Below are positions 1 through 7,675 of a stretch of DNA of 7,675 bases, piece after piece. The translations under genes were made by a program, and so were the position numbers. The notes under the pieces are model-generated. The model saw only the letters and a program-made list of their open reading frames with translations, was not told the DNA's origin and made no database searches. The stretch comes from a virus (Duplodnaviria; Heunggongvirae; Uroviricota; Caudoviricetes): positions 1 to 7,675 of the IMG/VR virus record IMGVR_UViG_2547132269_000011; one strand, written 5' to 3'. Within the stretch, counting starts at the first letter, position 1. The number at the start of each line of letters is the position of its first letter.

Positions 1-1212
1 GTGGCAAGAACGACACGCCCCCTGACCAACACAGAAGTTCTGCGCGCTAAAGCGTTAGAAAAGGATCTAACGTTACATGATGGCGATGGCCTTTTTCTGC
101 TCGTTAAAACGAACGGTAAGAAGTTGTGGCGTTTCCGTTATCAACGTCCAGCAACAAAACAGCGGACAATGATGGGGCTTGGTGCTTTCCCCGCCCTTTC
201 ACTTGCTGATGCTCGACGGTTAAGAGCGGATTACCTTGCTTTGTTGGCTAATGGTATAGACCCACAAGTTCAAGCTGAATTTATCGAAGAACAACAACAG
301 ATAGCTCTAGACAGTATTTTTTCGACTGTTGCGACCAACTGGTTCCAGATAAAAAGCAAAAGCGTTACCCCTGATTACGCTAAAGATATATGGCGCTCAC
401 TGGAAAAAGACGTATTCCCTGCCATCGGGGAGATTCCTGTCCAGCAAATAAAAGCCCGAACACTAGTTGAAGCCCTTGAGCCAATCAAAGCTCGTGGAGC
501 ACTCGAGACAGTGCGCCGACTTGTACAGCGCATTAACGAGATAATGATTTATGCCGTAAACACTGGTCTGATTGATGCCAATCCAGCATCAGGTGTTGGG
601 ATGGCCTTTGAAAAGCCCAGAAAACAAAACATGCCGACGCTGAGGCCAGAAGAATTACCAAAGCTGATGCGTTCTTTGTTCATGTCAAATCTGTCTGTTC
701 CGACTCGCTGTCTCATTGAATGGCAGCTTCTGACTCTAGTGCGTCCTGCTGAAGCTTCCGGTGCTCGATGGGCAGAGATCGATCTCGATGCAAAGCTCTG
801 GATGATTCCAGCCGAACGGATGAAGGCCAAACGAGAGCACATAGTTCCTTTATCCACGCAGGCATTAGAAATTCTAGAAGTGATGCAACCTATTAGCGCA
901 CATCGTGAGCATGTTTTCCCAAGCAGAAATGACCCTAAACAACCAATGAATAGCCAGACTGCGAATGCCGCGCTTAAGCGCATTGGTTATGGTGGGAAGC
1001 TTGTTGCTCATGGATTACGTTCTATAGCAAGTACAGCACTAAATGAAGCTGGTTTTAATCCGGACGTAATTGAAGCGGCACTTGCTCACAGTGATAAAAA
1101 TGAAGTTCGAAGAGCATACAATCGTTCAACTTACCTTGAACAACGTATAGACTTGATGAATTGGTGGGGTGAATTTGTGCACAACCGCCACCGCCTCATG
1201 CAAGCGATTTAA
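1..1212 (+). CDS. int: P4-family tyrosine integrase (site-specific recombinase); the 5' end may be clipped by the window edge
   Basis: 403-codon ORF from a GTG at position 1 to TAA at 1210-1212. N-terminal arm-binding-type region (LTNTEVLRAKALEKD...DGDGLFLLV...ANGIDP) and C-terminal catalytic motifs typical of tyrosine recombinases (AHGLRS H-x-x-R box; RAYNRSTY with the candidate catalytic Tyr). Sits at the element edge, as P4-like integrases do next to a tRNA attachment site. Confidence 0.9.
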   Translation: MARTTRPLTNTEVLRAKALEKDLTLHDGDGLFLLVKTNGKKLWRFRYQRPATKQRTMMGLGAFPALSLADARRLRADYLALLANGIDPQVQAEFIEEQQQIALDSIFSTVATNWFQIKSKSVTPDYAKDIWRSLEKDVFPAIGEIPVQQIKARTLVEALEPIKARGALETVRRLVQRINEIMIYAVNTGLIDANPASGVGMAFEKPRKQNMPTLRPEELPKLMRSLFMSNLSVPTRCLIEWQLLTLVRPAEASGARWAEIDLDAKLWMIPAERMKAKREHIVPLSTQALEILEVMQPISAHREHVFPSRNDPKQPMNSQTANAALKRIGYGGKLVAHGLRSIASTALNEAGFNPDVIEAALAHSDKNEVRRAYNRSTYLEQRIDLMNWWGEFVHNRHRLMQAI

Positions 1213-1239
1213 TAAGATTGCACAGCAAAGGAGTCTTAA

Positions 1240-2578
1240 ATGCCAAATAACTACCATCAATACATCGAAGACGTTAGTGATGATATAAAGACATGTCTTG
1301 AAGGAATGGGATGCCAACCCATACTTTTTGTTGGATCGGGATTAACCAAGAGATATCTTTCTGGCCCAAACTGGGAAGAACTTCTTCAGCAACTTGCTAA
1401 TGAATGTCCTAACATCGATAAAAGATTTGCCTATTATAAACAGAAATACCCCGAGTTGATTGATATCGGCAGTGTATTTTCTGATTCTTATAACGAGTGG
1501 GCATGGGGTGATGGAGAGAAAGAATTTCCAGCAGAGTTATTTGATGCAGGCAATGAGCCAAGTATTTATTTTAAATACAAAGCATCTAGTATTTTCAACT
1601 CATTGTTACAAGAAAAAGAAATCGTAAACAACGGTGAAATTGAACTTCTGAGAAAGATTCACCCTCATTCAATCATCACAACAAATTACGACAAATTACG
1701 ACAAATTACTTGAATCGATATATCCTGAGTTTACCCCCATTATAGGCCAAAAAATCCTTTACGCTAATCACGGTAGCATTGGTGAAATACTTAAAATACA
1801 TGGTTGCTGCTCCACTCCTGAAAGCATAATAATAAACCGCGATGACTACGATGACTTCATAAAGAAGAAGAAATATTTAAGCGCAAAACTGCTTACTTTC
1901 TTTGCTGAACACCCTCTTCTATTTATAGGTTACAGCGCAGAAGACTCGAACATAAAAAACATACTATCTGATATTGATGAACTACTTTCAGAAAATGGAG
2001 ATGTCATTCCAAATATATACATTTTAGAATGGACGAGCAAACAAAATGAAAGTGAATACCCACGCCGTGAACGGCTGATTCAAGTATCTGCAAATAAAAG
2101 CATTAGAATAAAAAGTATAGTAGCAAATGACTTCTCTTGGGTATTTTCAGCGTTTGGCGCGAACAGAGCACTTGATAACATAAATCCAAAATTATTGAGG
2201 GCACTTTTAGCTCGCACTTACGATCTCGTCAGAACTGATATACCTCGCAATCCTGTCCAAGTTGATTACCGAGTTTTATCAAGCATTAGCGAGTCAGAAG
2301 GTGAATTAGCGAAATTATATGGTATCGCCACATCGTCAGATGGTATGGCATTTAATGCCAGTTATCCTTTTACTTTAACCACGCTAGGGCAATCACTTGG
2401 TTTCAAAGGCTGGCATGATGCGAACAAACTATTAGAAGTAGTTAAAAACATCACGAACGTAGACATCAAGACATTCGATAACAAATACCACTATGCAATA
2501 ATGAACGGTGATGAGATTCAGTCCCATAGATATTCAAACTATCTTCGAGAACTCCTCGAAAAGGTTAGGGATGGATAG
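1240..2578 (+). pseudogene. SIR2-like (SIR2_2 / ThsA-DSR-type NAD+-dependent) candidate antiphage gene, interrupted by a +10 bp frameshift; repaired product about 442 aa
   Basis: ATG at 1240 with AAGGAG 6 nt upstream. Frame 1 gives 157 aa with a Gly-rich loop (PILFVGSGLTKRY) and ends ...IITTNYDKLRQIT* at 1711-1713. Frame 2 is open without stops from 1712 to 2578 and continues the domain (ESIYPEF...KIHGCC...LLFIGYSAEDSN...). Deleting one 10-bp unit joins them as ...ITTNYDKLLESIYPEF.... The Asn motif and the His motif fall on opposite sides of the shift. Visibly AT-richer than the flanking P4 core genes. Confidence 0.75.
1681..1710 (+). repeat. Three tandem copies of the 10-bp unit ACAAATTAC(G/T); two copies are coding-native, the third is the frameshifting insertion
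   Basis: Sequence acaaattacg acaaattacg acaaattact at 1681-1710. 10 is not a multiple of 3, so the extra unit shifts frame 1 into frame 2 and creates the TGA at 1711-1713. Confidence 0.9.
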
Positions 2579-2637
2579 GAGTTTGAGTTAGGAATAAAGG
2601 CTCCATAATTATTCATATAGCCTTACTACTTTTTATG

Positions 2638-2659
2638 GCCGCTTTAATAGCGGCTTTTT
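2638..2659 (+). terminator. Candidate intrinsic terminator downstream of the SIR2-like gene
   Basis: Stem GCCGCT (2638-2643) / AGCGGC (2649-2654), loop TTAAT, followed by TTTTT (2655-2659); 60 bp after the cargo stop codon. Confidence 0.5.
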
Positions 2660-2795
2660 CACAGCATTATTCATGCTTCTAGCACGATATGATGAACCGC
2701 AATAATCATAGCTAACAGGATTAATTTAAAGCATTACTCCTCGACTGAAGCGTGCTGTCATGCGAAAAAAATTTAAACTACCACGTTAGCGCGCA

Positions 2796-2814
2796 GTGCT
2801 TTCCCCGCCTCGCC
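2796..2814. other. cos: P2/P4-type cos cohesive-end sequence (reverse complement of GGCGAGGCGGGGAAAGCAC)
   Basis: The plus strand reads GTGCTTTCCCCGCCTCGCC at 2796-2814, an exact reverse complement of the 19-nt P2/P4 cohesive end as I recall it. Its position just beyond the 3' end of psu matches P4 organisation. Confidence 0.75.
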
Positions 2815-2860
2815 CGCACGCTTTGCGGGGCGGTTTTAATGCAGTTGCACTGACACGCTC

Positions 2861-2886
2861 AGACCGCGCCGGGAATGGCGCGGTCT
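2861..2886. repeat. Perfect 10-bp inverted repeat with a 6-nt loop near cos; possible packaging or protein-binding element
   Basis: AGACCGCGCC (2861-2870), loop GGGAAT, GGCGCGGTCT (2877-2886). No U-tract follows on either strand, so it is not a classical terminator. Confidence 0.4.
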
Positions 2887-2916
2887 GCAGAAAATGAGGC
2901 AGGGAAACGCATGCAA

Positions 2917-2948
2917 AGCCATGCACCTTATCGATGCATGGCTTTTTT
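2917..2948 (+). terminator. Candidate intrinsic terminator between the cargo/cos region and the convergent psu gene; may act in both directions
   Basis: Stem AGCCATGCA (2917-2925) / TGCATGGCT (2935-2943), 9-nt loop, then a T-run to 2948. On the minus strand it is preceded by an A-run and followed by a partly U-rich stretch, 30 bp past the psu stop. Confidence 0.45.
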
Positions 2949-2978
2949 CAGTAAAAACAGGCGGATTTTCGGGAAATT

Positions 2979-3551
2979 TTACACAGACTGACGTGATGCC
3001 AGTTGCGCACTTTTACGCGAAAAAATCATGTTCTGCGCAGGGGTGAATTTTTCACGGCTGTCGTCCACCGAAGCCGCGTCAGGCCTGAATCTGATGGTCG
3101 TTAAAATGTCGCTATCCTGTGCGGAATAATTAATTTTTTCACCCTTCGCAAGCCAGGACAGAAGGGCTTCACGCAGGGCATCTGTGGCACGCTGTATGGC
3201 ACAGTTTCGGGCAATGGCCGTCAGCTCACTGTAGCCCATCAGCTCCGGTGCCAGTGCCGCCGCCAGTGCTGTGCCGTGCTGCTGCATAAAATCATTCAGC
3301 CGGTCGCGGATGCTGATGTGCTGAACGGCTTCATGCGAACGAATATAACGACCGGCGGCCTGATTCACCTGCCATTTTCTGACTTCGATAATATTGCGTA
3401 ATTCGTCCAGGCGACTGACGTTTCTGCCTTCTCCTGACAGAAGCCGCAGATATTCCTGTTCGGCCGCAGCCAGCTCATTTTTGCGTTGCAGCCATGCTGC
3501 TTTGTTATTCTGACAGGTGTCAAAGGCCTGCTGTAAGGCTGTGCTTTCCAT
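2979..3551 (-). CDS. psu: Psu, polarity suppression protein (Rho antagonist / capsid decoration), 190 aa
   Basis: 190-aa ORF beginning MESTALQQAFDTCQNNKAAW..., which I recognise as near-identical to phage P4 Psu. Last gene of the sid-delta-psu block and ends next to cos. Confidence 0.92.
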   Translation of the reverse strand: MESTALQQAFDTCQNNKAAWLQRKNELAAAEQEYLRLLSGEGRNVSRLDELRNIIEVRKWQVNQAAGRYIRSHEAVQHISIRDRLNDFMQQHGTALAAALAPELMGYSELTAIARNCAIQRATDALREALLSWLAKGEKINYSAQDSDILTTIRFRPDAASVDDSREKFTPAQNMIFSRKSAQLASRQSV

Positions 3552-3624
3552 CGTTATCTCTTTCTCATCATGCTGAAGAATAAAAATACGGTGTGTGGCG
3601 ACGGCCGGTGTTAACCGGCAGCCC

Positions 3625-4125
3625 TCATTCCAGACGCAGCGAATATGATTGTGTTTTTAACCGTACTGGCGGCAGTTCCTGTTTTTCATGCAGGCGTTCT
3701 GCCAGTTCGTCCGGCGTGACCGGGCGGACAATGAAGCGGGTGATGGTCTGAAGCGTTTTAAACACCAGACCACAGCCCGGATCCGTGCACACATAAAAAC
3801 GCTCGGTGACTTCCTGAGACAGACGCCGCGATGTTCTTGACAGCGCAAGGCCTTTACATCTCCGACAACAATATCCGGTAACAAGCATTCTTTTCGGGCG
3901 CTTCATGCTGCCGGAGGCTGACGTCAGTGAATCGCGGTATCTCTGTTTGCCTGAAATGTATTCCATTCCTGAATCTTTACAGTCAGAGAAAAAGCTTTCA
4001 CTCGCTTCAAATGTCGCAGAGCAATAAATATTCCGGCACTGTGCAATCATTATCTTGGTGCCATCGTCCATGAAATGTGCGCGACGGGTGTGAGCAACAT
4101 GTCCACACGACGGGCAGTAAATCAT
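3625..4125 (-). CDS. delta: Delta, late-gene transcriptional activator with two Ogr-like zinc-finger domains, 166 aa
   Basis: The ORF track gives 185 aa from 4182, but the internal Met (MIYCPSCGHVAHTRRAHF...) gives 166 aa, the length I recall for P4 Delta, and its ATG (4125-4123) overlaps the sid stop (4124-4122) as ATGA. Two Cys-rich Ogr-type motifs (CPSCGH...C..C and CCRRCKG...CTDPGCG). Confidence 0.88.
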   Translation of the reverse strand: MIYCPSCGHVAHTRRAHFMDDGTKIMIAQCRNIYCSATFEASESFFSDCKDSGMEYISGKQRYRDSLTSASGSMKRPKRMLVTGYCCRRCKGLALSRTSRRLSQEVTERFYVCTDPGCGLVFKTLQTITRFIVRPVTPDELAERLHEKQELPPVRLKTQSYSLRLE

Positions 4126-4856
4126 GACAGCAGTCCTCTGGCCTTCAGCTCTGCTCCCTGCTGGTCTATTTTGTCCTGCCACACCTTGCGCTGTGCCGGT
4201 GTGCCTGCCACCTCATAATCCATGTGCGGGAGTGTTGCCGCTGACAGTCCGGTCAGCCGGAGAACCGGCTCGCCGGTGAGGCTGATTTGCATCTGTTTAA
4301 TTTTCTGTTCCAGCGATGATTTCACCTGCTGCATGACAGCCTTTTCCGGTGCGACGTAGCCCTGATGGCCGGTGGTGTTGGCGAGCGGATTTTCCTGTAC
4401 CAGAATGCTCAGATGCATTGCCCGGACAAGCGCCTCACAGGTTTCATTCAGGGCGTGTTCCAGCTCATGCTCTGCATACAGACTCAGAAGGTGATGATGT
4501 GCCTTCCGGTAGGCGGTGGCCGTGCTGTCACACGCCCCTTTCAGGCGTTCACGTTCGAAATTCAGCACCACGGCCAGATTGTCATATTCCTGTACCAGCT
4601 CCCGGCGTGCCACGCGCTCAATGTGGCGCTGTTTCAGCTCGTCGCTCAGGACACCACCGGCTGCACGAAAGGCCGTGCGCCAGTCGTCAGCGTCGTTTCC
4701 GTCGGCCTGCGTCAGCGCATTTTTTTCCTGCTCTGCCCGTTCAATGGCCGTGACGGTCTCATCCATCAGGCGGGCGTTCTCAAGATGAGCGGCTCTGGCC
4801 TTTTCCAGTTGTGCCAGTGCGGGTTGCAGATATTCAGGGATGGTGTTGTCAGACAT
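4122..4856 (-). CDS. sid: Sid, external scaffold / capsid size determination protein, 244 aa
   Basis: The track ORF is 266 aa from 4922. The internal start MSDNTIPEYLQPALAQLEKA... at 4856 gives 244 aa, the length I recall for P4 Sid, and has a GGAG Shine-Dalgarno (reverse complement of 4863-4866) upstream. Coupled to delta by the ATGA overlap. Confidence 0.9.
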   Translation of the reverse strand: MSDNTIPEYLQPALAQLEKARAAHLENARLMDETVTAIERAEQEKNALTQADGNDADDWRTAFRAAGGVLSDELKQRHIERVARRELVQEYDNLAVVLNFERERLKGACDSTATAYRKAHHHLLSLYAEHELEHALNETCEALVRAMHLSILVQENPLANTTGHQGYVAPEKAVMQQVKSSLEQKIKQMQISLTGEPVLRLTGLSAATLPHMDYEVAGTPAQRKVWQDKIDQQGAELKARGLLS

Positions 4857-4928
4857 TTTCCGGCTCCTCGTCACTTCAGGTTGAGAAAATTGTGACGTAC
4901 ACCGGACAGCAACACGACGCATTGCAGA

Positions 4929-4946
4929 TGTGCCAGCCCTGACACA
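4929..4946 (-). promoter_or_regulatory. Candidate Delta/Ogr-binding dyad (TGT-N12-ACA) for the sid late promoter
   Basis: TGT (4929-4931), 12 nt, ACA (4944-4946), centred about 81 bp upstream of the sid ATG. P2/P4 late promoters carry this dyad near -55. Pattern match only. Confidence 0.35.
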
Positions 4947-5025
4947 GGAGACTCATCCTCAGACCGGCAAGCCAGGAAAAGGTCGCAGGAAAAACCGGCT
5001 TACTGTTTGTTTTTTTATATTTTAC

Positions 5026-5129
5026 TGTTCACCTCTGTTCACCATAAGAAAAAAGATAAGTAATACAGTAAGTTAAAGGGTGAACAATCGCAGTGATGAC
5101 TGTTCACCGTCTGTTCACCACTGTTCACC
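5026..5129. repeat. crr: Cluster of six TGTTCACC octamer iterons (P4 crr/ori-type alpha-binding repeats)
   Basis: TGTTCACC at 5026-5033, 5036-5043, 5101-5108, 5112-5119 and 5122-5129 on the plus strand, and one inverted copy (GGTGAACA) at 5079-5086, mostly at about 10-bp spacing, flanked by AT-rich DNA. It lies between sid and the early operon, where P4 has its cis replication region. Confidence 0.7.
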
Positions 5130-5287
5130 CGTTGATGGGCTTTTTATGCTGTTTATTACTGTTTATTTTTATTAATTAACTGAAATAAATAAGAAAAAAC
5201 AATTTGCATTTCACTATAAAAAACTCCAGGTCCTTCAGAACCCTTTGAGACCCTTCCAGTCTGGATGGATAAAAAACACACAGCCAT

Positions 5288-5305
5288 TGTAAGGTTGCCG
5301 GAACA
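5288..5305 (+). promoter_or_regulatory. Candidate Delta/Ogr-binding dyad (TGT-N12-ACA) for a PLL-like late promoter upstream of vis
   Basis: TGT (5288-5290), 12 nt, ACA (5303-5305), about 110 bp upstream of the vis ATG. Pattern match only. Confidence 0.3.
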
Positions 5306-5407
5306 AATTCCCCCTGTTGCGTCTGCTGAAAATATTCACAAAATAAAGCGCTACCCGAAGCCGGACGGACTTATCCGGTGCTGTATGGACATTAACGAGG
5401 TAGCCCG

Positions 5408-5674
5408 ATGCAAGCTGTTTTTTCTTCCCCGTCTCCCGCCCCTGTTACGCCACTGATGCCGCTGCCGGACATCACGCAGGAGCGTTTTTTACGTCTGCCG
5501 GAAGTGATGCACCTGTGCGGCCTGTCACGCTCGACCATCTATGAACTCATCCGTAAGGGGGAATTTCCGCCGCAGGTGAGTCTTGGCGGTAAAAATGTGG
5601 CCTGGCTGCACTCTGAAGTCACCGCATGGATGGCCGGACGCATTGCCGGACGCAAACGGGGGTACGACGCATGA
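5408..5674 (+). CDS. vis: Vis / AlpA-family helix-turn-helix regulator, 88 aa
   Basis: 88-aa ORF with GAGG 7 nt upstream of the ATG. Contains the AlpA-type motif [48 protein letters not shown]. Length and position (between the late and early promoters) match P4 vis as I recall it. Confidence 0.75.
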
Positions 5675-5709
5675 TGATGCCCGCTCTGCAAAAAGTCCCT
5701 TTTTCTGGC

Positions 5710-5739
5710 TTGCCTTTTTCCGGCATTTGCGGATATAGT
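5710..5739 (+). promoter_or_regulatory. Candidate sigma70 promoter (PLE-like) driving the immunity/early operon
   Basis: TTGCCT (5710-5715), 18-nt spacer, TATAGT (5734-5739), just downstream of vis and about 30 nt upstream of seqA. A 5' stem-loop GCTGCCG/CGGCAGC follows at 5746-5765. Confidence 0.45.
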
Positions 5740-5769
5740 TTTTCCGCTGCCGCAAAATCGGCAGCCGGG

Positions 5770-5794
5770 CGTAGGAACCCGTGTAACTCGAAGG
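5770..5794 (+). promoter_or_regulatory. seqA-like target site for the immunity RNA
   Basis: CGTAGGAAC (5770-5778) and CTCGAAGG (5787-5794) recur in the same order at 6013-6021 and 6046-6053. Both blocks are complementary to blocks in 5967-5987. Confidence 0.55.
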
Positions 5795-5929
5795 CGACAT
5801 ATGACGCGCCATGCGTCTTTTTTTGTGTCGCAATCAACGCCACAGAGCGCCAGATTATGGTGTGGCGTGTGGTTTGCCGTGCAGGTATGATCCTGTTCGC
5901 AATCGCATGTTATGCCACTGAGTCAATGG

Positions 5930-6010
5930 TAGCTCAGGCGGGGCAGCCTCCGGGCTGGCCGGTATTCTTCGAGGCCGGTATTCCTACCCCCGTCTGGGCT
6001 ATCGCCATCG
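5930..6010 (+). ncRNA. cI: P4-type CI immunity RNA region containing seqB; exact ends not determinable from sequence
   Basis: CTTCGAG (5967-5973) and TTCCTAC (5981-5987) are antisense to the CTCGAAG and GTAGGAA blocks of seqA and seqC. Local hairpin CAGCC/GGCTG at 5944-5957. The position between the two target sites matches the P4 immunity architecture. Confidence 0.45.
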
Positions 6011-6012
6011 AG

Positions 6013-6055
6013 CGTAGGAACTCCGGCGATAGCAGTTATTTGCTACTCGAAGGAG
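6013..6055 (+). promoter_or_regulatory. seqC-like target site for the immunity RNA, overlapping the kil ribosome-binding site
   Basis: CGTAGGAAC (6013-6021) ... CTCGAAGGAG (6046-6055). The GAAGGAG Shine-Dalgarno for the ATG at 6064 lies inside the target, so RNA pairing would occlude translation initiation. Confidence 0.55.
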
Positions 6056-6063
6056 ACTGCCTT

Positions 6064-6261
6064 ATGGCTACAACCCTTACCCCTTCACACCCTGAATTTG
6101 TCTTTGTGTTTGCGGCTGTCCGTCGCGCAGACCGTCATCCCCGTATCTGCATGCTTCGCACCGTCGCCGGTGATGAACGCAGCGCCCGCCGTTCCCTTGT
6201 CCGTGACTATGTGCTCTCCCTTGCTGCCCGTCTGCCGGTGGTGGAGGTGTCCCGTGCGTAA
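6064..6261 (+). CDS. kil: Kil-like small protein, 65 aa, first translated gene of the early operon
   Basis: ATG at 6064 with GAAGGAG 8 nt upstream, 65 codons, stop at 6259-6261. Length and placement immediately after seqC match my recollection of P4 kil. The protein sequence itself was not recognised independently. Confidence 0.55.
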
Positions 6262-6541
6262 TAAAAAAGCCCCTCAGACCGTCTCAGCACGTCATGACGC
6301 CCGTGAACACCTCAGCATTGAGGCTTACCATAAGCTCAACCGCGCCAGCGCCGTATCCCAGTTTGTTGGGGGTGATTTGATTCACCGTGAACTCTCCGGC
6401 CTGCATCAGCTCTACATTCCGCATATTTTCAGCTACCTGAATGAAGATATTGATTTTGTGCTGAATGAGCTGAAAGCCAAAGGCCTGTGCCGCGATTTTC
6501 TCGCCCAGCAGAAAGACCGGGGAGACAAGACGCATGTTTGA
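6254..6541 (+). CDS. Hypothetical P4-like early protein, 95 aa, GTG start
   Basis: GTG at 6254 preceded by GGAGGTG. The track ORF 6098-6541 begins further upstream but that extension overlaps kil in another frame. Stop overlaps the start of the next ORF. Confidence 0.5.
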
Positions 6542-6914
6542 TTTTCCCCAGCCCGGTGAGATTTACCGTTCTGCCGGTTTTCCCGATGTGGCCGTGGTCG
6601 GCATTCTGGAAGACGATATTCCGTGGGAAATGCCGTACCGCTGCCCGGACATTGTCTGGAATCCGTACCGCCGTAAATTCAGTATCCTTGTGCGTATCCT
6701 CGCTGACGGGCGCACCACAGACATCCCGCTGGGGCGTTTTCTGCGGGAATTTACCTGTGACCGTCCTGACCTGTTCAAACGCAGCCCCGTAAACCGGCAT
6801 GCGGTACTGAAAGAAATGGCCGGAGACCCGGAATTACAGAAATGGCGGGAAATTCCCCGCACGGAGCCTGACCCGGAAACCACCCCGGATAACAGTTACC
6901 GCAATTATCTGTAA
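6534..6914 (+). CDS. Hypothetical P4-like early protein, 126 aa
   Basis: ATG at 6534 overlaps the upstream stop (ATGTTTGA), which suggests translational coupling. GGGGAGA lies about 10 nt upstream. No recognisable domain. Confidence 0.6.
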   Translation: MFDFPQPGEIYRSAGFPDVAVVGILEDDIPWEMPYRCPDIVWNPYRRKFSILVRILADGRTTDIPLGRFLREFTCDRPDLFKRSPVNRHAVLKEMAGDPELQKWREIPRTEPDPETTPDNSYRNYL

Positions 6915-6987
6915 TTAAAAAACGACACCCGAAAAATTAAATGTGCGTATTCGCGCAGGGATACGCACGTCTTCAGGAGACGCAGAT

Positions 6988-7053
6988 ATGCCTTATCAGT
7001 TAATGCAACCGGCACGGAATGCAGTCATCTGTCACAGGGAGGAAAGCAAATGA
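6988..7053 (+). CDS. Possible 21-codon leader ORF coupled to the next gene
   Basis: ATG at 6988 with AGGAGA 7 nt upstream; its TGA (7051-7053) overlaps the ATG at 7050 as ATGA. Preceded by a hairpin GTGCGTAT/ATACGCAC at 6943-6968. Too short to support on sequence alone. Confidence 0.2.
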
Positions 7054-7370
7054 AAACACCCTTACCGCCCGTCTTACGCGCAGCCCTTTACCGTCGCGCT
7101 GTCGCCTGTGCCTGGCTGACCGTGTGCGAACGTCAGCACCGCTACCCGCATCTCACCCTTGAATCACTGGAGGCGGCCATCGCCGCTGAGCTGGAGGGCT
7201 TTTATCTGCGCCAGCACGGTGAGGAAAAAGGGCGTCAGATAGCCTGTGCCCTGCTGGAAGATTTAATGGAATCCGGCCCCCTGAAGGCCGCGCCGTCGCT
7301 GTCCTTTCTCGGGCTGGTTGTGATGGATGAACTCTGTGCCCGTCACATAAAAGCGCCGGTACTGCACTGA
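7050..7370 (+). CDS. Hypothetical P4-like early protein, 106 aa, immediately upstream of alpha
   Basis: ATG at 7050 with GGGAGG 6 nt upstream. Same strand and tight spacing with the alpha start. Confidence 0.6.
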
Positions 7371-7384
7371 AGGAGAACAACACC

Positions 7385-7675
7385 ATGAAAATGAACGTAA
7401 CCGCCACCGTCAGCCATGCGCTCGGCCACTGGCCGCGTATTCTCCCGGCGCTGGGGATTCAGGTGCTGAAAAACCGTCATCAGCCCTGTCCGGTCTGTGG
7501 CGGGAGTGACCGCTTCCGTTTTGATGACAGGGAGGGGCGCGGCACCTGGTACTGCAATCAGTGTGGTGCCGGTGACGGCCTGAAACTGGTTGAAAAGGTG
7601 TTTGGTGTTTCCCCGTCCGACGCGGCCGCAAAGGTGGCTGCCGTGACCGGCAGCCTGCCACCGGCTGACCCGGCA
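7385..7675 (+). CDS. alpha: Alpha primase/helicase, N-terminal zinc-ribbon region; 3' end beyond the window
   Basis: ATG at 7385 with AAGGAGA upstream. Translation MKMNVTATVSHALGHW...CPVCGGSDRFRFDDREGRGTWYCNQCGAGDGLKL carries a CxxC...CxxC zinc ribbon typical of P4-type primases. Open to the last base of the window. Confidence 0.85.
   Translation, partial: MKMNVTATVSHALGHWPRILPALGIQVLKNRHQPCPVCGGSDRFRFDDREGRGTWYCNQCGAGDGLKLVEKVFGVSPSDAAAKVAAVTGSLPPADPA

Follow-up and report, generated by a model that had tools for sequence, protein, structure and literature searches.

What is the role of the last part of a short SIR2 protein that carries nothing recognisable behind its NADase domain and has no partner gene beside it? 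This question is raised by a gene in a 7,675-nt stretch of viral DNA (Caudoviricetes; IMG/VR record IMGVR_UViG_2547132269_000011, positions 1 to 7,675; hereafter the window), bases 1990-2578 of which had been flagged in a first-pass annotation as a possibly novel sensing domain of a single-gene defence system. SIR2 NADases are a major effector class of bacterial immunity, and the systems are distinguished by how each is switched on. Our analysis suggests that the flagged bases are probably the 3' portion of a single-gene SIR2 cargo of the P4 int-psu hotspot which was inactivated recently, and that intact alleles probably encode a single-chain NADase that acts by abortive infection and bears a regulatory or sensor module at its C-terminus.

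To describe the gene as it stands in the window, the following features, including the open reading frame (ORF) of its first part, are needed:

1240..1713, plus strand: ORF of the SIR2 N-terminal fragment, frame 1 (157 amino acids (aa), made up of intact residues 1-152 and 5 out-of-frame residues; TGA at 1711-1713)
1681..1709, plus strand: run with a 10-bp period, ACAAATTACG, in 2.9 copies by repeat scan (intact alleles, 1.9 copies)
1706..1989, plus strand: frame-2 continuation of the SIR2 domain, residues 153-247, which holds catalytic His184 (1799-1801, KIHG motif) and is cut off from the start codon
2576..2608, plus strand: premature TAG (2576-2578), then 9 untranslated codons and the original TAA (2606-2608)

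The start codon of the N-terminal fragment is ATG 1240, with an AGGAG 7 nt before it; the fragment keeps both the GxG motif FVGSG (residues 30-34) and catalytic Asn149 (1684-1686). When compared with NZ_AP021894, one extra ACAAATTACG unit (aligned as 1681-1690) amounts to a 10-nt insertion and a +1 frameshift; this duplication sits on the catalytic TTNYD motif and cuts Asn149 off from His184 and from the entire tail. The protein had been described as a single ORF of 442 aa, but the frame-1 ORF stops after 157 aa, and dropping one ACAAATTACG copy yields exactly the 442-aa sequence, which is a silent repair of the frameshift. Its end at 2578 is likewise not the natural one: a nonsense change from GAG (Glu443) to TAG at 2576 deletes the last 10 codons (EEFELGIKAP) of an intact allele of 452 aa (WP_001133507). 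Set against the E. coli reference allele (annotated WP_001133507), the window DNA shows 4 substitutions in all, besides the 10-bp insertion. Since only A115V and two synonymous changes are found besides the two lesions, the inactivation appears to be recent.

Both lesions are likely to be genuine and not artefacts of this window: a Logan short-read assembly contig (SRR8358079) matches it with 100% identity along its 7675 bases, and 5 assembled contigs yield the exact 157-aa fragment. The duplication is missing from all 7 complete E. coli genomes in which the gene occurs (5426 complete E. coli genomes searched). Past the frameshift, the first start codon in frame is TTG 2195, and as no AGGAG-like ribosome-binding site is visible upstream of it, the tail is unlikely to be translated independently. 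Judged by its sequence, the window copy is therefore best described as a pseudogene of the SIR2 gene, predicted to be inactive and not to be counted as an active defence system.

Several side observations concern these same sites and the state of close relatives. Intact alleles already hold a near-repeat, ACAAATTAC-G-ACAAATTAC (1.9 copies of the 10-bp unit), on the TTNYD motif; the near-repeat at 1681-1709 may be a natural slipped-strand hotspot, at which one unit gained or lost would turn the gene off or on. An E. albertii protein (P0001) that is not interrupted elsewhere has the same TAG end (...VRDG), and also an odd poly-K insertion resembling an assembly artefact. The acidic C-terminal end (consensus GExYxΦxΦ) may be dispensable, or the P0001 copy may also be decaying. 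Other close homologues are truncated, namely P0082 (289 aa, 42 member sequences), P0085 (310 aa, Pectobacterium, with a frameshifted end) and P0017 (414 aa, with a foreign N-terminus); they suggest frequent inactivation, as expected for a costly or toxic effector, although they may also be assembly artefacts. Two stand-alone tail ORFs (P0144 and P0182, on metagenome contigs L013 and L014) turned out to be the downstream halves of split SIR2 genes; these may be either true pseudogenes or the result of long-read frameshift errors, and they were left out of any argument for recurrent pseudogenisation. On L014, a 238-aa SIR2_2 fragment lies directly upstream of the tail ORF, while on L013 the upstream ORF is 178 aa long and has no Pfam match.

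The enzymatic part of the protein could be assigned by sequence and by structure. Pfam gave SIR2_2 only (residues 144-266, E 4e-27), and a PDB sequence-profile search matched nothing other than the SIR2 domains of DSR2, ThsA, KomC and FAM118B, with the ThsA alignment running to query residue 301. Asn149 of the TTNYD motif aligns with N133 of DSR2, and His184 with its H171; both catalytic residues, which the frameshift splits in the window, are invariant in 61 homologues. We then used AlphaFold2 to model the full-length protein from an intact, 96%-identical homologue (P0002) with 61 homologues (mean predicted local distance difference test score, pLDDT, 73.7). Foldseek matched this model to the SIR2 domains of ThsA, KomC and DSR2 at E 1e-8 to 2e-10, in alignments of ~300-337 columns. 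The SIR2 part is strongly acidic (median charge -16), and it falls in the SIR2_2 clade of the ThsA, DSR and LmuA defence effectors, not among classical sirtuins.

Bases 1990-2578, read in frame 2, encode residues 248-442 (...SENGDVIPNIYILEWTSKQ...LLEKVRDG*), and the model together with the homologue alignment suggests the following division:

1990..2158, plus strand: end of the SIR2 fold, residues 248-303 (modelled strands 256-261, 274-280 and 283-292, helix 296-303; Pfam SIR2_2 to 266)
2159..2269, plus strand: post-SIR2 helix, residues 304-340 (most conserved tail stretch, NPKLLRALLARTYxLVRxDIP)
2270..2356, plus strand: linker, residues 341-369 (family-specific; pLDDT 35-47 in the full model and 50-67 in the tail-only model; least conserved internal stretch)
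2357..2575, plus strand: basic compact module, residues 370-442 (predicted strand, helix-turn-helix (HTH), beta-hairpin and final helix; winged-HTH-like, family-specific)

In the model the SIR2 fold extends to about residue 303 (domain ~25-303), so that the first ~55 residues of the flagged tail would not form an extra domain. Of the ~190 aa that had been placed beyond the SIR2 domain, these first ~55 residues should thus be given back to the enzyme, whereas those after ~303 did go unmatched in Pfam, NCBIfam, PDB-sequence and Foldseek searches. The further statement that nothing recognisable by sequence lies beyond the SIR2 domain held up against Pfam, NCBIfam and PDB sequence profiles. Searched alone, the tail had no Pfam or NCBIfam match and no match in PHROGs, and against PDB sequence profiles at E ≤ 10 it gave only spurious matches, such as 2KZX (an FMN-binding-type domain, read from the sequence motif). 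The check that had been proposed, structure prediction of the tail followed by Foldseek, returned nothing at E < 1 from the PDB.

In the homologue alignment, the conservation of the tail is about equal to that of the catalytic core, and W388, D410, Y413, Y428 and S429 are invariant. In residues 304-340, 16 of the 37 columns are at least 90% conserved; a helix is modelled at 313-327, and pLDDT is low across 306-367. A tail-only model, built with 76 sequences, reached pLDDT 84-91 for residues 372-442 (full-length numbering). This C-terminal module is basic (median pI 9.1) and is followed by the short acidic end. On the module segment, Pfam Bro-N (PF02498) was reported for one of 20 family tails, at 21.3 bits and E 4e-4, below the gathering score of 25.6. 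An hhalign comparison with a 120-sequence Bro-N alignment was also weak (P 0.004, probability 8.6%, 29 columns) and covered only the xLGY/F helix-turn-helix motif. That alignment was seeded by a Bro-N consensus, which retrieved 7904 proteins, with PF02498 in 120 of 120 among the matches listed; phage HK022 Roi was dropped as a seed, its N-terminus not being Bro-N-like by eye. Since the Bro-N and profile-profile matches are weak and Foldseek is empty, we call the modelled module HTH-like and place it in no family. In particular, sequence-level membership was found neither for the MerR/excisionase/RacA winged HTH domains nor for Bro-N (sub-gathering Pfam, hhalign 8.6%, no Foldseek match).

How far does this tail travel, and with what? 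The intact protein has more than 1800 detectable relatives, and the best 120 of them are nearly all 450-460 aa long and 53-98% identical, coming from Enterobacterales, Pseudomonas, Xenorhabdus, Vibrio, Thioalkalivibrio, Paenibacillus, Cohnella and a Methanoperedens bin. An exhaustive hidden Markov model (HMM) search with the tail profile through 1.84 billion representative proteins found 222 sequences only. In full-length matches the tail lies at ~293-455 of a 440-500-aa protein, and SIR2_2 was the sole Pfam domain in those tested, as it was in the longer outliers (485-598 aa). When the tail profile was used in a second protein search, all that came back were fragments of this family, in no new domain architecture. 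To judge from these searches, the tail is restricted to the SIR2 architecture and does not behave as a shuffled module.

Among catalogued phage-defence candidates, PDC-S25 of PADLOC has an HMM that matches the protein strongly (E 1.5e-83), but only over positions 10-357 of its 517. Across the family the match spans positions 10-357 or 10-378 (~270-285 bits) and reaches residues 364-405 in family members, while a true PDC-S25 member, BC1912 of the Bacillus prophage phBC6A51 (538 aa, PHROG 2695), covers positions 9-515 with 590 bits. By BLASTP the protein is 31% identical to BC1912 over residues 20-338, including the post-SIR2 helix, after which BC1912 has a longer, unrelated C-terminus. Both groups are single-gene SIR2_2 proteins found in prophages and mobile elements, but the C-terminus of PDC-S25 is ~200 aa long, whereas that of the window family is ~110 aa and unmatched by the PDC-S25 profile. 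Residues 248-340 thus seem to be common to ThsA-like SIR2 folds and PDC-S25, and only ~341-452 would be family-specific. Since the chassis is common to residue 338 but the C-termini differ, the comparison is consistent with a SIR2-plus-helix chassis that carries alternative C-terminal ends, and so with a swappable C-terminal module.

The setting of the gene was resolved from the remaining features of the window, which is a P4-like satellite with int, an AT-rich cargo gene, a cos core, psu, ogr/delta-like and sid-like genes, an AlpA-type regulator and a C4 RNA region:

1..1212, plus strand: P4-type integrase gene (403-aa ORF; left boundary of the int-psu cargo hotspot)
2637..2659, plus strand: terminator-like hairpin GGCCGCU/AGCGGCU (2637-2655) and U-run (fold -11.9 kcal/mol, z -3.8)
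2796..2814, minus strand: P2/P4-type cos core, GGCGAGGCGGGGAAAGCAC (exact match; right edge of the cargo slot)
2979..3551, minus strand: psu (polarity suppression) gene (190-aa ORF; Pfam Psu in the identical locus; E. coli reference annotation; right hotspot boundary)
5408-5674: AlpA-like regulator gene (AT-rich intergenic dip upstream, ~4800-5400)
5733-6009, plus strand: P4 immunity RNAs (Rfam, all above gathering thresholds), namely c4-a1b1 targets at 5733-5785, isrK at 5746-5823 and C4 antisense RNA at 5922-6009

In the identical Logan locus the integrase carries the Arm-DNA-bind_3, Phage_int_M and Phage_integrase domains, and the E. coli reference also annotates an integrase. The minus strand carries psu, the ogr/delta-like gene and the sid-like gene. 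The Rfam matches at 5733-6009 confirm a P4-type immunity region, which overlaps long spurious ORFs (e.g. 5626-6261). We take GGCGAGGCGGGGAAAGCAC to be the P2/P4 cos sequence. The same string is also present in cloned P2/P4 hotspot sequences (Table S2 of PMC9122126). The cos core lies 218 nt 3' of the SIR2 stop codon (2578) and 165 nt before the psu stop, and from this position the order of the cargo slot is int-SIR2-terminator-cos-psu. GC content is 35-40% over the SIR2 cargo (window 1200-2800) as against 52-58% in the psu/delta/sid backbone; an AT-rich cargo fits, and is consistent with, recent horizontal acquisition.

Within this slot SIR2 is the only gene between int and cos/psu, and the E. 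coli annotation is alike. The first-pass annotation had noted the lack of a partner gene before cos, and indeed no other ORF was found between the SIR2 gene and cos (2796-2814), which leaves only the hairpin; a consensus terminator scan did not call the hairpin at 2637-2655. The family elsewhere gave the same impression of a gene acting alone. The Pseudomonas aeruginosa homologue (L003-L005, gene at 6001-7353 or 2567-3919) is 73% identical and lies on the edge of a filamentous prophage of Pf-like type (Zot, DUF2523, XisF-like HTH_17). The Thioalkalivibrio homologue adjoins an Eco57I-type restriction-modification gene, an Mrr-like nuclease and ParE toxins, and the Vibrio and Paenibacillus homologues have unrelated neighbours. 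No neighbour is common to the Pseudomonas, Thioalkalivibrio, Vibrio and Paenibacillus contexts. The family's neighbourhoods are rich in mobile-element and defence genes. A 256-aa P. aeruginosa ORF without a Pfam or PADLOC match lies 34 nt downstream of the homologue there; it is unconserved elsewhere and may be separate cargo. As a candidate for a conserved partner it was compared with the 256-aa Mrr-like Thioalkalivibrio gene, and the two proved unrelated (E 0.81). The single-gene reading of the locus is thereby borne out, being also that of the published catalogue ('Number of genes: 1', PMC9122126).

In that catalogue the same gene is P4 hotspot system #39 'SIR2_2', described as 'Likely a NADase', with 40 loci (Rousset et al. 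2022, PMC9122126). WP_001133507 is listed there as a P4 hotspot SIR2_2 system, and the window agrees with system #39 in its location between int and cos/psu and in its protein; in the parts of the sequences compared, upstream DNA and protein match the window except for A115V and the two lesions. The published allele, by contrast, is intact at 452 aa, whereas that of the window has the duplication and the TAG at codon 443. The C-terminal region was not analysed in that study (PMC9122126), and in the literature on PDC-S25, on SIR2 with HTH and on Pf prophages with SIR2 we found no functional characterisation, and none later than PMC9122126 for the SIR2_2 family. The novelty once suggested for the tail must be trimmed accordingly: the tail is conserved and has no confidently recognised domain, but the family is catalogued as system #39 and matched by PADLOC PDC-S25, and only ~341-452 is family-specific.

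How, then, might an intact allele work? Most likely, the enzyme would be kept inactive until a phage-derived ligand engages the C-terminal module. As the module is HTH-like, this ligand would most plausibly be nucleic acid or a DNA-associated phage protein. An active oligomer might then assemble, by analogy with other defence SIR2 enzymes, whereupon NAD+ would be depleted and the infection aborted. The sensor role of the tail is a step that we purely infer. Since the duplication parts Asn149 from His184 and the tail, and the tail is without a plausible start, no such protein is expected from the window itself. A bolder version would make intact members a distinct class of single-chain immune NADase, in which a winged-HTH/Bro-N-like module directly senses phage nucleic acid or a DNA-bound phage protein, and in which the extreme C-terminus is an exchangeable specificity module that separates the family from PDC-S25; this we regard as possible but doubtful.

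Several points weigh against a sensor-equipped abortive-infection NADase. An intact allele from E. coli M605 was cloned with its native upstream region as pFR88 (PMC9122126), and this plasmid stands in Table S2B ('additional tested systems') and not in Table S2A ('validated defense systems') of that study. Seven systems were protective against the 8-phage panel, and only TIR-NLR against P2-like phages (PMC9122126). As pFR88 is listed as tested but falls outside the seven validated systems, defence activity of the intact allele is undemonstrated. In addition, the fold assignment of the C-terminal module is weak (no Foldseek match, hhalign 8.6%, Bro-N below threshold in 1 of 20), and the most conserved tail segment (306-367) is modelled at low confidence.

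The negative phage-panel result keeps alive the view that the protein is not anti-phage at all, but a sirtuin-like deacylase, an ADP-ribosyltransferase or a selfish cargo with some other role for mobile elements, whose tail would direct it to a substrate. RefSeq names some members 'SIR2 family NAD-dependent protein deacylase', no defence phenotype has been reported for the cloned intact allele, and the copy here has decayed. The phage panels tested were small, however, and the protein belongs to the SIR2_2 clade of ThsA, DSR and LmuA effectors, is strongly matched by a PADLOC defence candidate, and occurs in the P4 defence hotspot, near restriction-modification, Mrr and ParE genes and at prophage edges, so that we hold a non-defence role to be quite improbable. 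Nor does a Thoeris or DSR system seem to hide in the gene. A divergent Thoeris ThsA (SIR2-SLOG), or a short DSR, with a C-terminus too diverged to be seen would agree with the PADLOC ThsA models, which match the SIR2 part (E 1e-20), and with size, ThsA having ~476 aa against 452 aa here. ThsA (PDB 6LHX, 8BTO) is also the best structural match to the SIR2 domain (Foldseek E 2e-10), and its catalytic Asn and His are conserved. Yet ThsA matches end at residue 250-301, the C-terminal SLOG of ThsA is absent by Pfam, and the predicted tail, a helical linker and a small HTH-like module, has no Rossmann-like SLOG fold. No ThsB/TIR partner was found in the E. coli, Pseudomonas, Thioalkalivibrio, Vibrio or Paenibacillus contexts, and there is no evidence here of a cyclic ADP-ribose-type signal. 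DSR2 (PDB 8WY8 and others) is likewise a single-chain SIR2 NADase, its C-terminal region senses a phage protein, and its TTNYD and K(V/I)HG motifs align with the window's protein. It is, however, ~1000 aa long with a large helical C-terminal domain, compared with 452 aa and a C-terminal region of ~150 aa with an HTH-like module; NCBIfam Dsr2 gave 14.7 bits against a cut-off of 1400, and PADLOC Dsr1 and Dsr2 matches cover the SIR2 core only. The tail is therefore neither SLOG nor a DSR-type C-terminus, as the first-pass annotation had judged by eye, no confident alignment to either having been obtained, and a hidden ThsA or DSR is effectively refuted. SIR2-HerA (Gao_Her / Nezha) needs an adjacent HerA (DUF87) gene, whereas the window has a single gene only; SIR2_2 with DUF87 is a separate system in the tables of PMC9122126.

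Two further readings accept the enzyme but give the tail another task. The tail could be mainly a structural or oligomerisation element that supports tetramers or filaments, with the signal sensed elsewhere, for instance by the SIR2 domain, through a bound nucleotide signal as in KomC or ThsA. The closest SIR2 structures (ThsA, KomC, DSR2) form helical filaments or tetramers, and the helix at 304-340 is the most conserved, is common to PDC-S25 and models poorly as a monomer, which is typical of segments that fold on assembly. Such a role would leave unexplained both the differing C-terminal ends on the same chassis and the conserved polar or aromatic surface-type positions D410, N411, Y413, H414, Y428 and S429, and we consider it unlikely. 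Alternatively, the HTH-like module might be an autoregulatory DNA-binding domain that represses the gene's own promoter, as in many toxin-type operons. The module is basic and resembles MerR/excisionase-type winged helices, and a potentially toxic NADase has no separate regulator nearby. But the fold call is weak, the SIR2 gene begins 28 nt after int, the sequence upstream gave neither a convincing sigma-70 promoter nor an operator-like repeat (promoter-like sites being fewer than in shuffled sequence), and the unrelated upstream contexts across genomes make a conserved operator unlikely; autoregulation thus appears improbable. We consequently keep to a single-chain NADase with a C-terminal regulatory or sensor module as the probable nature of the intact alleles.

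For this window the outcome is the more modest one of a predicted pseudogene of an already catalogued gene, and what is new about it amounts to a variant among the single-gene SIR2 candidates. For the family it is wider: these proteins are widespread in Enterobacterales, Pseudomonas, Vibrio, Paenibacillus and even a Methanoperedens bin, they ride P4 satellites and Pf-like prophages, and they appear to act alone, with a small conserved C-terminal module unlike the SLOG or DSR sensors. If this module does sense nucleic acid or a phage protein, the family would be among the most compact sensor-effector designs known and would offer a tractable model.

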